From: a virus | Length of the DNA: 64,000 nucleotides | IMG/VR virus record: IMGVR_UViG_2509601031_000003 | Direction: 5' to 3' (one strand) | Shown here: positions 24,447 through 51,608 of the stretch, in pieces | How the letters are laid out: every line of letters begins with the position of its first letter | How positions within the stretch are numbered: position 1 is the stretch's first letter | Made by a program: the position numbers and the translations under genes | The notes under the pieces: generated by a model | What the model was told of the DNA's origin: nothing | Seen by the model: the letters and a program-made list of their open reading frames with translations, nothing else | Databases searched by the model: none

Positions 24447-24683
24447 TCAACCGTCAAATTTCACCCCAAAATCAGTGTCTAGCGCCCGTTCGATCCCCCT
24501 TAAAACGTCCTCCGTAATGTACTGGCGCTTACCTTTCTCGATCTCGTACCAATAGGCGGTTGAAATTCCCGCCTCAGTAGCCAACGCCTGAGCGGATCTA
24601 CCACTAGCCTCTCTAAGCTCTTTGATCCGCTTCTCTAAGTCGGGAACCGTTACTCGAATCTGTCTCACAACATCCACTAGCAT
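24447..24683 (-). CDS. XRE-family HTH regulator
   Basis: RIKELREASGRSAQALATEAGISTAYWYEIEKG. Confidence 0.85.
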   Translation of the reverse strand: MLVDVVRQIRVTVPDLEKRIKELREASGRSAQALATEAGISTAYWYEIEKGKRQYITEDVLRGIERALDTDFGVKFDG

Positions 24684-24741: not shown

Positions 24742-24770
24742 TTGACAACTGTAGTATTAAACTCTAGTAT
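24742..24770 (+). promoter_or_regulatory. Sigma70-type promoter
   Basis: TTGACA-17 nt-TAGTAT. Confidence 0.6.
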
Positions 24771-24851
24771 AGAAGACAAGCAAAGAGAAAGCGCCCCGGT
24801 CTGGACAACTGAAAGCGCTTCCCTAAACCCCTATTAAGGATTTCAACTATT

Positions 24852-25163
24852 ATGGCTCAACTAATTGGTAATCTCCAAACCCTGAATCGCGATCGCCGCG
24901 TCGAAGTCAGTCACACACTAGGCAAGATCACAGCCATCCAGCATGGTTACGCGACAACCTACACACTAGAGTGGAGCGGTCACTATCTCGGCGAAACAGT
25001 TCAAGGTGCTGACAAGCTCTTCTACGTTGGCACTGGTCAAGGCTACACGTTACCCGAAGTCGCTCACTATCTTCTGATTCAGTTCCTCGACAAAATTCGC
25101 CTCAGCAATGAGTGGGCGTTCAATCAGCTTATGCAGCAAGAATCTCTGCCTGTTGCTGCTTAA
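24852..25163 (+). CDS. Hypothetical protein (paralog of 52105-52464)
   Basis: Shared HYLGETVQGADKLFYVGTGQGYTLPE...LIQFLDKIRLSNEW. Confidence 0.7.
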   Translation: MAQLIGNLQTLNRDRRVEVSHTLGKITAIQHGYATTYTLEWSGHYLGETVQGADKLFYVGTGQGYTLPEVAHYLLIQFLDKIRLSNEWAFNQLMQQESLPVAA

Positions 25164-25205
25164 CCTATCCGGGGCGATTAATCATCGCCCCGCACTCACC
25201 ATACC

Positions 25206-25228
25206 AATTCGGACAGCGTGTCCGATTT
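25206..25228. repeat. 23-bp palindrome copy 10
   Basis: AATTCGGACA-GCG-TGTCCGATTT. Confidence 0.95.
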
Positions 25229-25242
25229 CAAAAAGGAGCATC

Positions 25243-25584
25243 ATGGCGAAATACAAGTTTTTGGAAGAACTAGAAGCGGTCGAAACGAAGTACAAGCGGT
25301 TAATCGAGATGCCGCCGAGCAAGCCTAAATATCGTTTGTGGCAGGTTGTTGAGCACGATCGCGGATACGGCAAAAATAAGGAAACGTCTCTCGGTCGAAT
25401 TTGCGGGTTTCATTTTGTGCGAGTTGCGATCGCGCTTTTGGAAGGAGAAGGCTGCGAACCCGGCTGGCGCTATCACGTCGAGACTAACGAGGACATCCTA
25501 ATTCTGCAAGAGTCCAATATCAAAAGAGTGGTGGAAGAACCGACTCAGCTTGAGAGGGAGGCTGAAGATGAGCAACCCGAATAA
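25243..25584 (+). CDS. SH3/KOW-like phage protein
   Basis: AAGGAG RBS; PKYRLWQVV...RICG...PGWRYHVE matches N-half of 49055-49531. Confidence 0.6.
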   Translation: MAKYKFLEELEAVETKYKRLIEMPPSKPKYRLWQVVEHDRGYGKNKETSLGRICGFHFVRVAIALLEGEGCEPGWRYHVETNEDILILQESNIKRVVEEPTQLEREAEDEQPE

Positions 25585-25882
25585 TGCTGTCTACGTTTGG
25601 AACAATCCGATTTATCGATGGGGTTCCGGTTTTGTGTACCGAGGTTATTTCATTTGTCCTGTCGATAGTGGTTTTGATTGCCTACTTGGAGTTGCAGTGT
25701 TTGACCCTTTCGGGCAGGAGCTTGCTGACGAAACGACACATCAGCTTGTTTCTTCGATCGAAGAGGTTTGGCAAGTTGGGAAAACCTTTGTTGATTCAGA
25801 ATTGCGGCGGCTCACTGAAGAGTCTCCCAATCTTGCCAAAACAATTTTGCTTGCATCTGAGAGGGAGGTTTGCTATGTCTAA
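25568..25882 (+). CDS. Hypothetical protein
   Basis: Coupled ORF in rightward operon. Confidence 0.5.
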   Translation: MSNPNNAVYVWNNPIYRWGSGFVYRGYFICPVDSGFDCLLGVAVFDPFGQELADETTHQLVSSIEEVWQVGKTFVDSELRRLTEESPNLAKTILLASEREVCYV

Positions 25883-26105
25883 CTTTCCAGACTGCCGATT
25901 TCAGATTGGACAACGGGTGAGAGTGAGTGACCAGGGTGAAGAACTTTCCGGTGAAATCAAGGCGATTCTTTACGCTGAAACTGTTCCAAGTTGGAGTGAA
26001 GGTTGCGCGTGGTCGCGTCCTGGGTTCACTTACTTTGTTGAGTTTGATAGACCGAGGGCGATTCACGATATCGCGCATGAAAGCGAGTTAAACGAGGTGG
26101 AATGA
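25875..26105 (+). CDS. SH3/KOW-like phage protein
   Basis: FQIGQRV...AILYAETV...PGFTYFVEF...AHESEL matches C-half of 49055-49531. Confidence 0.6.
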   Translation: MSNFPDCRFQIGQRVRVSDQGEELSGEIKAILYAETVPSWSEGCAWSRPGFTYFVEFDRPRAIHDIAHESELNEVE

Positions 26106-27616
26106 TGGCTCAAAGAACTGTCACAGTTACAACTGAATTACCTGTAGAACTGTGGCAGTTCGCGATCGACGTTTCTAAGCTAGTCGAACCAGCCAGAGTC
26201 GAGTATCTCAATCGGAAGCTAGCTGGTGACGACGAAAACAGTATTGTTCGAGAGCTACAACCAAAGTACGGAATTAACAAGCGCCAGGTAAACGCGATTC
26301 GCTCCGAGGTCAGAGGCGCGATTTCATGCGCAAAAGAAAGTCGGAAACTCCACATCAACACACTGGAGCTGCAAATTAAGTCTACAAAAGGGTGGCTAAA
26401 AACCGCGGCGAAATCACTTGCAAAACTGCCCGATGCTGTTGGGTTGCAGCATGGTCAACATCTTAGAGTTCAGAAGCGCTTCGCGATTCACCACAAGAAA
26501 CGCCGGCTCCATCTGCTAGAGAAAAAGCTAGAACATTTGAAAAGCAAGCCGCTGCGTGTGTCGCTAGGTAACAAGGGTACGCAGTACCTTACGATTGGTA
26601 CAACCAAGGAAAGCTTTGGTAATCATATTGCCCAGTACGACGGCGGCACAATCAAGTTTCGGGTTCCCTATGCGTTAGAAGCTAAGTACGGCAAAGCGAT
26701 CTCATCCCCACTTAGATTTGAGCATGAACAAGGTCGGCGGTGGATTAATGATGCCATTCAAGCAAATCGCGCCCTGTCTTACCATATTTACTGTAAGGGC
26801 TTTCGTTGGTTCATCGCCTGTTGGATCAGTGTCCCAGAGCCACCCAGCCAATCACTTCCTCGGCAGTACGGCTGCATTGGAATTGATATCAATCCGGGCG
26901 TGATTGGTTGGGCTTACGTTGACTCGGATGGCAATCTCAAGCGCCACGGACAATTTAAGTTGAATCTACACAGCCGCAGGCGTGGTCAAATTGAGGCGGT
27001 ACTTCATGACGTTACAAGGCGAATCGTGACAATCGCAAAATCACTCTCATGCCCCGTTGTCATCGAGGCCCTCGACTTTACTGCAAAGAGGTCACAGCTA
27101 AGAGAGCGAGGTAGGAAGTACGCTCGAATGCTTTCGGGGTTTGCCTACAGCAAGTTTGCTAAATTTCTTGATCAGAAGTGTCAACTAGCAGGTATTGAGT
27201 TAATCAGTGTAAAGCCCGCCTATAGCTCGACTATTGGACTCGTCAAGTTCATGCGGCAGTATGGGCTAAGCTCCGATACCGCCGCGGCCATCGTTCTAGC
27301 GCGTAGAGCGATGCGATTATCAGAGCGTATTCCTGACCACAACGCCTATCCGTCCGTGAAGGCTGGAAAGCACGTATGGTCCGCATGGAACGCGCTAAAT
27401 AACACGCTGAAGTCTCTTCCAAGGCATCAGCACTTTACGCGACCTAACAGGTCACTAGAGGCCACGCCAGTTTGTGGGTCGCAAGACGGGCTTGCTGGCA
27501 AGCGAAATCGCACTTCTAGACGCGGTGAAACTCCGCAGCGGAATCGTAAAGCTGCCGTTAGCGATACGTGCCTAGACGTACACGGTTTTATCCAGCTACG
27601 TATAGGCTTTAATTAA
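26102..27616 (+). CDS. tnpB: TnpB-family RNA-guided nuclease (IS200/IS605/IS607 accessory type), no adjacent TnpA
   Basis: RuvC-I GIDINPG, RuvC-II VVIEALDF, KYARMLSGFAYSKF, KPAYSSTIG, RuvC-III SDTAAAIVLARRA. Confidence 0.85.
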   Translation: MMAQRTVTVTTELPVELWQFAIDVSKLVEPARVEYLNRKLAGDDENSIVRELQPKYGINKRQVNAIRSEVRGAISCAKESRKLHINTLELQIKSTKGWLKTAAKSLAKLPDAVGLQHGQHLRVQKRFAIHHKKRRLHLLEKKLEHLKSKPLRVSLGNKGTQYLTIGTTKESFGNHIAQYDGGTIKFRVPYALEAKYGKAISSPLRFEHEQGRRWINDAIQANRALSYHIYCKGFRWFIACWISVPEPPSQSLPRQYGCIGIDINPGVIGWAYVDSDGNLKRHGQFKLNLHSRRRGQIEAVLHDVTRRIVTIAKSLSCPVVIEALDFTAKRSQLRERGRKYARMLSGFAYSKFAKFLDQKCQLAGIELISVKPAYSSTIGLVKFMRQYGLSSDTAAAIVLARRAMRLSERIPDHNAYPSVKAGKHVWSAWNALNNTLKSLPRHQHFTRPNRSLEATPVCGSQDGLAGKRNRTSRRGETPQRNRKAAVSDTCLDVHGFIQLRIGFN

Positions 27617-27640
27617 CGGAGTTAGTTTTTAGTCTTTGAA
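27430..27640 (+). ncRNA. Candidate omega-RNA overlapping tnpB 3' end
   Basis: By analogy to TnpB systems; low-complexity protein tail after the last conserved motif; putative right end ...TTAACGG at 27619; boundaries approximate. Confidence 0.35.
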
Positions 27641-27661
27641 ATCGGACACGCTGTCCGTTTT
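27639..27661. repeat. 23-bp palindrome copy 11
   Basis: AAATCGGACA-CGC-TGTCCGTTTT; between tnpB and tail gene. Confidence 0.95.
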
Positions 27662-47640: not shown

Positions 47641-48623
47641 AGCGCTGTAAGTTCGGTTGAGTTGTTTACAGAGGCAATGGACGCAATCGCTCGTCCGATG
47701 TGGTTGTAAGTCTCCAAGCCTTTTCGGTTGGCAGTGTTCAATCCTTGGGTGAAGTCGCCGTTCTTCATCTCAAGAAAATCATCCCAGTCGAGTTGATTCT
47801 TCTTGATTCCTTTCTCGGTTTCCTCGTTGTTCAAGATGTGCCTTGCACCCTTCGAGCGAGCGGGCATATCACCAGGGGGGAATCGTCTTCCAACAAACTC
47901 AGCAAACTCTGGGTCAGGCTGCCCGTTAGGTTGCTGCCAAGGGTGCAAATTTCCTGAAATGCGCTGGTGAAAGCGAATCGTCGGCGAAATGTAATTCGAT
48001 GATTTTTTTGGCGGCGCGGCGGAAATTTGGTCATCCCGAACTAATTCAGTTTCACAACGAGCGGACTGATGTGGGCTTGGAATCGAAGCGAATGTTTCGG
48101 GGTTGGTCTCAAGTTTGGTTTTGTCGATCGTTGGCAAACTTTCTTCCCCCTCTCTTTCCCCTTGGGGGGTTAGGGGGGAGTTATTTGTTATCTCAGTACT
48201 TGTTGGAATAGTACTTATTATGTGATCCGGTTTTCCGTCGATGGAAAACCCGGACACGGAAAACCGGGTTATGGCTTCCGGCTCCATAACCCGGTTTTCG
48301 GGTTGTGGCTCATCATCTTCGATTGACGCAGGTTGCTCCCTGACGATGGATTCCCAGTAAAACTGCTTTGTTTCAGGATCTTTCCTTCTTTCTCGTGAGA
48401 TATACCCTGATTCTTCCAGTTCTTTCAGTGCCGACGCGATCGCGGTTTTCCCGTCACACTCTGATTCACTTTCGAGATGCTTAATGTTTACCTTCCAGTC
48501 GTCTGGATAGCTCAGTAAAAGGTGATGCAATCCTCTAGCCTTAAAGCTTAGTTTTTTGTCTCTGATTGCCCGATTTGATATGACCGTGTAAGATTTTTCG
48601 TGCTTGATCCGCAAGATACTCAT
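47637..48623 (-). CDS. Phage replication initiator (N-terminal wHTH)
   Basis: YTVISNRAIRDKKLSFKARGLHHLLLSYPDDW...IASALKELEESGYISR. Confidence 0.85.
   Translation of the reverse strand: MSILRIKHEKSYTVISNRAIRDKKLSFKARGLHHLLLSYPDDWKVNIKHLESESECDGKTAIASALKELEESGYISRERRKDPETKQFYWESIVREQPASIEDDEPQPENRVMEPEAITRFSVSGFSIDGKPDHIISTIPTSTEITNNSPLTPQGEREGEESLPTIDKTKLETNPETFASIPSPHQSARCETELVRDDQISAAPPKKSSNYISPTIRFHQRISGNLHPWQQPNGQPDPEFAEFVGRRFPPGDMPARSKGARHILNNEETEKGIKKNQLDWDDFLEMKNGDFTQGLNTANRKGLETYNHIGRAIASIASVNNSTELTAL
48181..48299. promoter_or_regulatory. Putative replication origin inside initiator gene
   Basis: Four GAAAACC(C)GG copies (48227, 48243, 48258, 48290; two per strand), perfect 16-bp IR 48259-48274/48284-48299, adjacent AT-rich tract. 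Confidence 0.55.
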
Positions 48624-49054: not shown

Positions 49055-49531
49055 TCAACTGCCCTTTTCTGTGGCTAGCTCCGACTCGTGAGCCACATCT
49101 TGAAAACGCTTCGCCCGATCGCTGAATTCCACAAAATAAGTGAAACCCGGATACTTCCAAAATGTATTGCTCACTGTTTCGGCATAGAGAATCGCTTGAA
49201 CAATGCCTGATTCGCGATCGCTCGTTACAACCTGCTGTCCGACGGAGAACTGCGGCAGCAGAATCGAAGTACTACCCGCCTCAGCGATCCCGTCAATGTC
49301 GTCTTGGTGAATGATGCTGATTGAGTCTTTGCCTTCCAAGTGATAATGCCAGCCCGGATAGCTGCTCTCAGCAAAGGCAATTTCGGGGCGGGTGAAATAC
49401 ATCCCGCATATTCTGGCTGTTTTCTTGCCGAATCGAACGGTCTGCCAAAGGTGATATTTGGGCGCGGGAAAGGGATGATCCAGCAGGGCTTTGAGGTTTA
49501 ACTCGAATTCGGTTAAGTTGGATTGAGACAT
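49055..49531 (-). CDS. Tandem SH3/KOW-like two-domain protein
   Basis: Fusion-like counterpart of 25243-25584 plus 25875-26105. Confidence 0.6.
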   Translation of the reverse strand: MSQSNLTEFELNLKALLDHPFPAPKYHLWQTVRFGKKTARICGMYFTRPEIAFAESSYPGWHYHLEGKDSISIIHQDDIDGIAEAGSTSILLPQFSVGQQVVTSDRESGIVQAILYAETVSNTFWKYPGFTYFVEFSDRAKRFQDVAHESELATEKGS

Positions 49532-51065: not shown

Positions 51066-51608
51066 CTAGTTGGCGGAAAATTCAACGCCGAAGTCTGTGT
51101 TTAAAACTTTTTCAATCAATCTCAATGTTTCAACAGACAGAGATTGTCGCTCATCCTCAATGCGATACCAGTTCTGAACAGACATGCCAGCGGCAGCGGC
51201 AATCTGCGTAACCGCTCTACCATCTGCTTTCCTGGCCGCCCTAATTCTTTTTCCAAGTTCAGGGACTTCAATCTCGACTGTTTTGTAAACAGTGGTAAAG
51301 CCCTTGGATTCGATAGATGCTCCGTTTAGTGGTGGGCTGAAATGTCCTATCAGAGCTTTTTCAACTTCAGGCAGTAATGAGGAGTCGCTAACAGACAGGT
51401 ATGCGATTCTCGAACCCGAAGACTGATTTAGCTGGTCAAATCGGTGATGCTGCTGCCACCTGTGGCGAAGGTTTGACGCTCGCCCGATGTACTGCACTGC
51501 ATCTTCACCGTCGATCGCGAAGTAGATGCACGGTGTTTCCGGCAACTGCGATCGCTGCTCTAGTGGAACGAAAGGTAAATCAAGAGGGTTGATTTCTGTG
51601 GGATTCAT
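51066..51608 (-). CDS. GIY-YIG + XRE-HTH fusion
   Basis: CIYFAI...YIGRASNLRHRW...FSPPLN followed by RIRAARKADGRAVTQIAAAAGMSVQNWYRIE. Confidence 0.85.
   Translation of the reverse strand: MNPTEINPLDLPFVPLEQRSQLPETPCIYFAIDGEDAVQYIGRASNLRHRWQQHHRFDQLNQSSGSRIAYLSVSDSSLLPEVEKALIGHFSPPLNGASIESKGFTTVYKTVEIEVPELGKRIRAARKADGRAVTQIAAAAGMSVQNWYRIEDERQSLSVETLRLIEKVLNTDFGVEFSAN

Follow-up and report, generated by a model that had tools for sequence, protein, structure and literature searches.

TnpB is known to drive the spread of insertion sequences (ISs) between plasmids (10.1101/2025.02.20.638934), and TnpB ‘non-restorative homing’ (PMC13565253; 10.1101/2025.02.20.638934) is the known counterpart of the activity proposed below; according to a review, TnpB drive does not need TnpA (PMC13565253). 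CboTnpB, an IS607 enzyme, uses TGGG as its TAM and spares the TCGG of its own element (10.1101/2023.11.20.567912). In phages, the spacers of Cas12r match integrative elements (10.64898/2026.04.20.719267), and TldR is described as an RNA-guided transcription factor (10.1101/2023.11.30.569447). Cyanophages carry tnpB genes as well: Mic1 gp49 is an early gene whose disruption was found in a less infective strain (PMC11237433), and the portions at hand of the reports on Mic1 gp49 and on the tnpB of A-1(L) define no guide or target for either (PMC11237433; 10.64898/2026.02.14.705889). TnpB drive between plasmids and, within what these texts give, cyanophage tnpB genes without defined guides are thus already known. 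The exit of TnpB from transposons to become a phage-owned nuclease, however, is usually inferred from distant end-points. The prophage locus described here appears to reveal its donor family, its insertion site, the graft point and the origin of the guide, in a complete genome from an apparently cultured strain.

The window analyzed is the whole 64,000-nucleotide stretch of IMG/VR virus record IMGVR_UViG_2509601031_000003, enclosed by a prophage in the chromosome of a 99.99%-complete cyanobacterial genome (7.26 Mb, five contigs). Terminase and tape measure genes were found in the prophage, and a putative tyrosine-integrase-like ORF lies ~7 kb to the right. The closest related prophage, L070 (provirus IMGVR_UViG_3300037420_002493), shares an HTH regulator, three operon genes (41–60%), two further genes and a related palindrome with a 4-nt spacer. 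The operon consists of four small genes, with gene X last, and is divergent from the Cro/C1-type HTH regulator (24447..24683, minus strand; Pfam HTH_31, E 2.5e-11; L070 ortholog 44%). Its first three genes (24852..25882, plus strand; ~103, 113 and 104 aa) are gene calls, the last two with syntenic L070 homologs at 41–43%. Gene X (25875..26105, plus strand; 76 aa) is a phage gene with the same C-terminal length as its three closest homologs, namely E/Q-L, four residues and a stop; a longer ORF from 25584 was rejected as the upstream gene in its favor. The promoter-like site ahead of the operon (24742..24770, plus strand) matches the consensus at 10 of 12 positions, a count no higher than in shuffles. 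Contigs from the RNA runs of one study, from which level, strand and ends cannot be read, span the operon and break over the divergent promoter region, with starts at 24818 and 24860, a faint hint at most. A paralogous module of the operon occupies window positions 49055-49531 and 51066-51608; there, two operon genes are fused in one 158-aa ORF with the gene X domain at its end and no nuclease behind. An HTH near this module is fused to an N-terminal part that, from its motif, we take to be GIY-YIG-like.

The tnpB ORF follows gene X on the plus strand, from 26102 or 26105 to 27616 (504 or 503 aa), and contains no stops or frameshifts. An earlier note on this DNA, made from the letters alone, had reported that its start overlaps the upstream stop and that all three RuvC acidic residues are intact, and both observations hold. 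The gene X TGA (26103-26105) overlaps both ATG 26102 and ATG 26105, of which the homolog alignment favors the latter. Numbered from 26105, the acidic residues are D261 (nt 26885), E321 (27065) and D391 (27275); across 20 homologs the first two are invariant and D391 nearly so. The protein belongs to an IS607 clade without a zinc finger, the CxxC motif being absent from its sequence. It passes TIGR01766, falls below the full-length TnpB cut-offs NF038280 and NF040570, and scores 46.7 bits on the Cas12f2 model (cut-off 450). An AlphaFold model (pTM 0.46) matches Cas12f, Cas12k and TnpB structures, at the level of the general Cas12f/TnpB fold only. At the N-terminus, an in-frame imperfect 6-nt duplication (26117-26128) adds two residues missing in 19 homologs. 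The sole other member of the 90% cluster is a 504-aa protein of the same chromosome, corresponding to the longer start. The host also encodes two distant TnpB/Cas12-like ORFs (G000 C2:73096-74337 and C1:4193604-4194005; open frames of 513 and 689 aa), both unrelated to the window TnpB by tblastn.

The nearest proteins to this TnpB are 68–75% identical, and each fetched locus with a 70–75% relative carries a MerR-resolvase (IS607) TnpA, whole or damaged, directly upstream; the TnpAs of the two relatives scored reach 216–222 bits against NF033518 (cut-off 110). In these relatives the tnpA stop and the tnpB ATG overlap by one base, an exact match to the gene X/tnpB overlap. By sequence, the window TnpB descends from a TnpB partnered with an IS607 TnpA. 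The earlier note saw no transposase and no obvious left end at the locus, and the genome as a whole bears this out: IS607 TnpA is absent from all 7.26 Mb (tblastn, NF033518), the left ends of four relatives give no significant match, and neither tnpB nor its right end has a second copy. With no identical copies and no transposase in the host, the cassette is not an ordinary mobilizable non-autonomous IS, the deflationary case that the note had raised. Because the left-end and transposase tests fail, the cassette is not an IS607 member as a mobile element, and the locus is best classed as an IS607-derived TnpB/omega-RNA module. A complete IS607 of the same clade lies behind the tape-measure gene of another phage-like contig (L023:1-7485), so this IS clade does enter phages.

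About 13 nt of the tnpA tail probably remain (26092..26105, plus strand), comprising the last ~4 codons, a Shine-Dalgarno sequence and the stop, and now form the end of gene X. The 13 nt ahead of the tnpB ATG match five tnpA tails at 8–11 of 13 positions and three gene X tails at 5–6 of 13, the six nt preceding them match the L070 gene X tail in full, and blastn matches to IS607 loci start at 26089-26094. Because a tnpA-tail match follows a match to L070 gene X, the junction is probably chimeric, with gene X running as far as E-L and the last codons of tnpA taking over from there. This bears on the proposal that the phage had co-opted tnpB by translational coupling. The overlap with a phage gene is real, but it is the same as the native IS607 tnpA/tnpB junction, so the coupling came with the transposon. 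Since the gene X family is also coupled to the next gene in L070, L075, L096, L117, L119 and L120, coupling alone is weak evidence of co-option. The 5–6 nt of the E-L codons are present on both sides of the cassette. IS607 is not known to duplicate its target, which makes it probable that the left side was restored through recombination with an empty allele; speculatively, repair of a TnpB cut could restore it in one step.

Alignment with six related elements puts the close of the right end at GG 27618-27619, as the earlier note had proposed, and the nearest relative, L068, has identical last bases there. The predicted omega-RNA scaffold with the IS607 right end (27440..27619, plus strand; 5' limit approximate) overlaps the 3' end of tnpB. 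For the last 200 nt, the consensus fold contains 14 covarying pairs with 97% of cells paired, above all shuffles and slid controls, the structure having been derived from the same seven sequences on which it was scored. The window scaffold keeps 41 of the 44 pairs; seven of its standard pairs are private to the window and occur in none of the relatives, most of them altered on both sides. In the closing stem, 27555-27561 pairs with 27613-27619, as it does with covariation in the six relatives, and since the element's last bases are part of this stem, the guide begins at 27620. An Rfam search returned neither RAGATH-18 nor any other match. The left flanks of seven relatives end in GGG, which suggests a GGG-ending TAM for the zinc-finger-less clade; the ACGG right end, set against these GGG left flanks, parallels the self/non-self rule of CboTnpB.

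The predicted guide (27620..27639, plus strand) can be read as the gene X 3' end, displaced: translated from 27619, the flank gives E-L-V-F-S-L-stop. In the four closest gene X proteins the C-terminus is E/Q-L followed by four residues, and the first 9 nt of the flank equal the corresponding L070 gene X tail, with the stop in register. An E/Q-L six codons before a given stop occurs in 0.5% of cases in this prophage (chance 0.005), a figure calculated after the pattern had been noticed. Most likely, the insertion point lay 20 nt short of the end of the gene, and the guide is the old gene X tail, which would match only its own empty site. Since the guide reads as this tail, it would address that site and not the 23-bp repeats that the earlier note had also considered.

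Following that note's suggestion, the nucleotides after 27619 were searched against host, plasmids and phages; apart from the locus itself, all matches are at chance level. Neither a target nor an empty allele appears among the sequences searched, which were the host chromosome with its plasmids, IMG/VR, GenBank phages and ~490 cyanobacterial genomes. Behind GG, the host and its plasmids contain no 16-nt match with ≤2 mismatches except the locus itself, and the counts of 3-mismatch matches resemble those of shuffled guides. A family-wide 16-nt pattern matches fewer sequences than its reversed control. Several candidates were examined and set aside. One IMG/VR match (L079, GGG plus 15 nt) is surrounded by unrelated DNA, and a collection of this size should yield such a match by chance; six 2-mismatch matches in 400 genomes fall in three unrelated chromosomal gene families, again by chance; and a 16/20 match in the prophage replication initiator gene (48546-48565) has seed mismatches and no TAM and is likewise attributed to chance. 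In every gene X tail inspected, the codon ahead of E-L is something other than NGG, and a GGG TAM is therefore missing; an ancestral AGG, one change from the present AGC, would supply it.

The guide ends at a 23-bp palindromic site (27639..27661), in agreement with the note's simpler reading that the guide lies just before the repeat. The window contains 21 such sites, against 0 in 100 shuffles. The genome contains 25, all in the prophage between window positions -7877 and 65386 (window 539-62536 plus flanks), and the one further 3-mismatch match elsewhere in the genome is not palindromic. These sites often begin on a stop codon or sit between convergent genes, and at least five long genes end on one with TGA in the same register (8283, 10670, 13302, 23423 and 58293), the TG ahead of the site being partly a motif extension. 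The last base of the displaced gene X stop is the first base of site 27639, which is most likely the site on which gene X used to end. Each site arm varies independently of the other, a pattern suggestive of protein binding and not of an RNA hairpin. The same arms occur in L070 (396-17160), mostly with a 4-nt spacer. That a guide offset by ~20 nt could address these sites, a second suggestion of the earlier note, seems to us very improbable. The site does start at guide position 20, and 18 other sites match such a guide within 2 mismatches. However, the covarying closing stem fixes the guide start at 27620, where no other site matches, and the 18 sites that match after a 19-nt offset all lack GG in front. 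Gene ends on sites are common here, which explains the adjacency, and cutting the 23-bp sites would destroy the phage's own genome. The site is a neighbor, not a plausible target.

At four-fold sites, the window tnpB is near random against all relatives (25–36% identity, versus 45–69% among the relatives themselves). As pairwise dS is saturated, a codon model was used, which gives dN/dS of 0.074 on the window branch and 0.086 elsewhere and rejects dN/dS = 1 by 42 log-likelihood units; the window branch is ~2-fold as long as that of its sister L068. The TnpB lineage has, on this evidence, been functional for a long time and under purifying selection, which may predate capture: with synonymous sites saturated, the signal cannot be dated to after capture or tnpA loss. 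Private changes at otherwise invariant columns number 42 in the window TnpB and 18 in L068, and the near-invariant residues altered around RuvC-II/-III include K329R and N370K. The data searched contain no divergent phage copy of the tnpB cassette. The note had asked whether relatives keep tnpB at this position; the closest one, L070, has an unrelated Cas12-like protein there.

In L070, the gene coupled to gene X, again through a one-base overlap, encodes a 652-aa TnpB/Cas12-like protein, and behind it lies a mini-array of four 37-nt repeats with spacers of 29, 15 and 35 nt (L070:10210-12373), the last repeat overlapping the end of the portal gene. This putative nuclease has VGDL at RuvC-II, belongs to a family of 23 and is not alignable to the window TnpB clade. 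Its spacers have no credible protospacer; spacer 3 (reverse strand) resembles the window guide at 11 of 15 nt, a likeness judged marginal. In L117 (728-1701; G100:C70), an HNH endonuclease (PHROG 3377, E 2.5e-54) is coupled behind a distant gene X-family fusion gene. Three unrelated nucleases in 15 loci, the closest pair included, suggest selection for the slot, in a small sample. GenBank phages contain no close relatives of TnpB, gene X or the 151-aa downstream gene, nor does IMG/VR apart from the L070 provirus for gene X. We tentatively propose, while regarding it as rather doubtful, that the position behind gene X in these temperate cyanophages is under selection to carry nucleases that cut competitors, that an HNH enzyme, an IS607 TnpB with a single fixed guide and a mini-array-bearing Cas12-like protein came to occupy it independently, and that the present locus is a first step of TnpB domestication.

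Our best reading of the locus, to which we give somewhat better than even credence, is an immobile RNA-guided homing or exclusion nuclease kept by the phage. An IS607 element would have entered gene X at a GG close to the 3' end of that gene and later lost its own left end and nearly all of tnpA, such that gene X reads in frame into the last codons of tnpA. This loss would have kept gene X full length, and the native overlap would have put tnpB under the phage operon. Unable to transpose, the cassette is predicted to make TnpB and an omega-RNA with the old gene X tail as guide. In co-infection or superinfection it would cut related phages with an uninterrupted gene X and either be copied into them or exclude them, in effect an RNA-guided free-standing homing endonuclease. 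Counting against homing, a nuclease is missing beside gene X in 12 of the 15 loci, and the 5–6-nt duplication is unexplained by IS607 insertion alone. The earlier note's broader idea, a nuclease co-opted by the phage against competitors, survives in part: the single copy, the conserved protein and scaffold and the L070 slot nuclease speak for it, but the coupling was inherited and the guide probably points to the cassette's own empty site. A stranded IS607 remnant, in which a deletion took the left end and tnpA, left gene X intact and left behind a tnpB that has not decayed and has no current target or benefit, is the main rival, a less likely account yet one to be taken seriously. It accommodates the inherited coupling, the lack of any target and of a GGG TAM in known gene X tails, and the wider family, in which TnpA-less and TnpA-damaged copies are common; the window TnpB has more private substitutions than any relative, and the 9 identical nt shared by the flank and the L070 tail are in keeping with an event of fairly recent date. 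It accounts poorly for a tnpB free of stops and frameshifts whose only indel is in frame, a branch dN/dS that is not raised, an intact scaffold, the recurrence of nucleases in the gene X slot and the lack of a donor element in the host.

Two further readings keep the protein in service with a different role. It is improbable that the nuclease has been domesticated and its guide redirected to a host locus or to some other mobile element, in a conflict like that of Cas12r, the likeness to gene X being historical. The protein is of the same zinc-finger-less RuvC type as Cas12r (34% over 179 columns of RuvC), whose spacers have such matches (10.64898/2026.04.20.719267), and many private changes in the N-terminal half of TnpB could shift the TAM; however, host and plasmids contain no match behind GG beyond the locus itself, 3-mismatch counts are those of shuffled guides, and the matches outside the host were due to chance. 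Binding without cutting, by which the RNP would repress transcription of gene X or its operon in related phages in a TldR- or Cas12m-like manner, is in our view slightly more improbable still. TldR is nuclease-dead. All three catalytic residues are kept here and the guide lies at a gene end rather than a promoter, although K329R and N370K are among the altered residues and phage-domesticated TnpB repressors exist (10.1101/2023.11.30.569447).

The locus makes TnpA-independent RNA-guided homing between phages directly testable, with the sister prophage L070 as an array-bearing counterpart in the same slot. It also adds a zinc-finger-less TnpB clade with a predicted GGG TAM, for which we found no characterized member closer than Cas12r. 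If the slot reading is true, the locus would be a snapshot of the first step that a phage takes in domesticating TnpB, and the capture could be read with nearly single-base precision.

Compared with IS607 elements carrying TnpB and omega-RNA (CboIStron, 10.1101/2023.11.20.567912; ISFba1, PMC11061315), the locus has in common the serine-recombinase TnpA partner of all its close relatives fetched, the one-base overlap, the GG core, a CGG right end, a G-rich left flank, a scaffold overlapping the 3' end of tnpB and a guide from the right flank. Unlike them, it has no tnpA, left end or host helper transposase, and its expression is predicted from a phage operon; its 503-aa protein belongs to a clade without a zinc finger, scores under the NF038280 and NF040570 cut-offs and has an RNA without an Rfam match. 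The demonstrations of TnpB homing concern IS605 elements with complete ends in plasmids, whereas the cassette here is an end-less IS607 derivative in a phage. TldR repressors are likewise prophage-borne, transposase-free TnpB derivatives (10.1101/2023.11.30.569447), from which the window TnpB differs in its intact RuvC triad. Mic1 gp49 (PMC11237433) and the tnpB of A-1(L) (10.64898/2026.02.14.705889) are also cases of TnpB in cyanophages; the A-1(L) tnpB is identical to five host copies, whereas the window tnpB has none. By sequence the nearest described phage system is Cas12r of the Thermus Lalka phages (10.64898/2026.04.20.719267), and the GenBank phage matches of the window TnpB are Thermus phages only. 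Both proteins are transposase-free in phages, and Cas12r is phage-expressed and proposed to act in inter-element conflict; Cas12r has a CRISPR array and crRNA, whereas the window, with no repeat array after tnpB, has a single omega-RNA and a transposon right end. In predicted behavior, the locus resembles the free-standing phage homing endonucleases of intronless homing (T4 SegB/SegF), as an immobile nuclease in a phage operon predicted to cut the cognate locus in related replicons, with the difference that the nuclease of the window would be guided by RNA.
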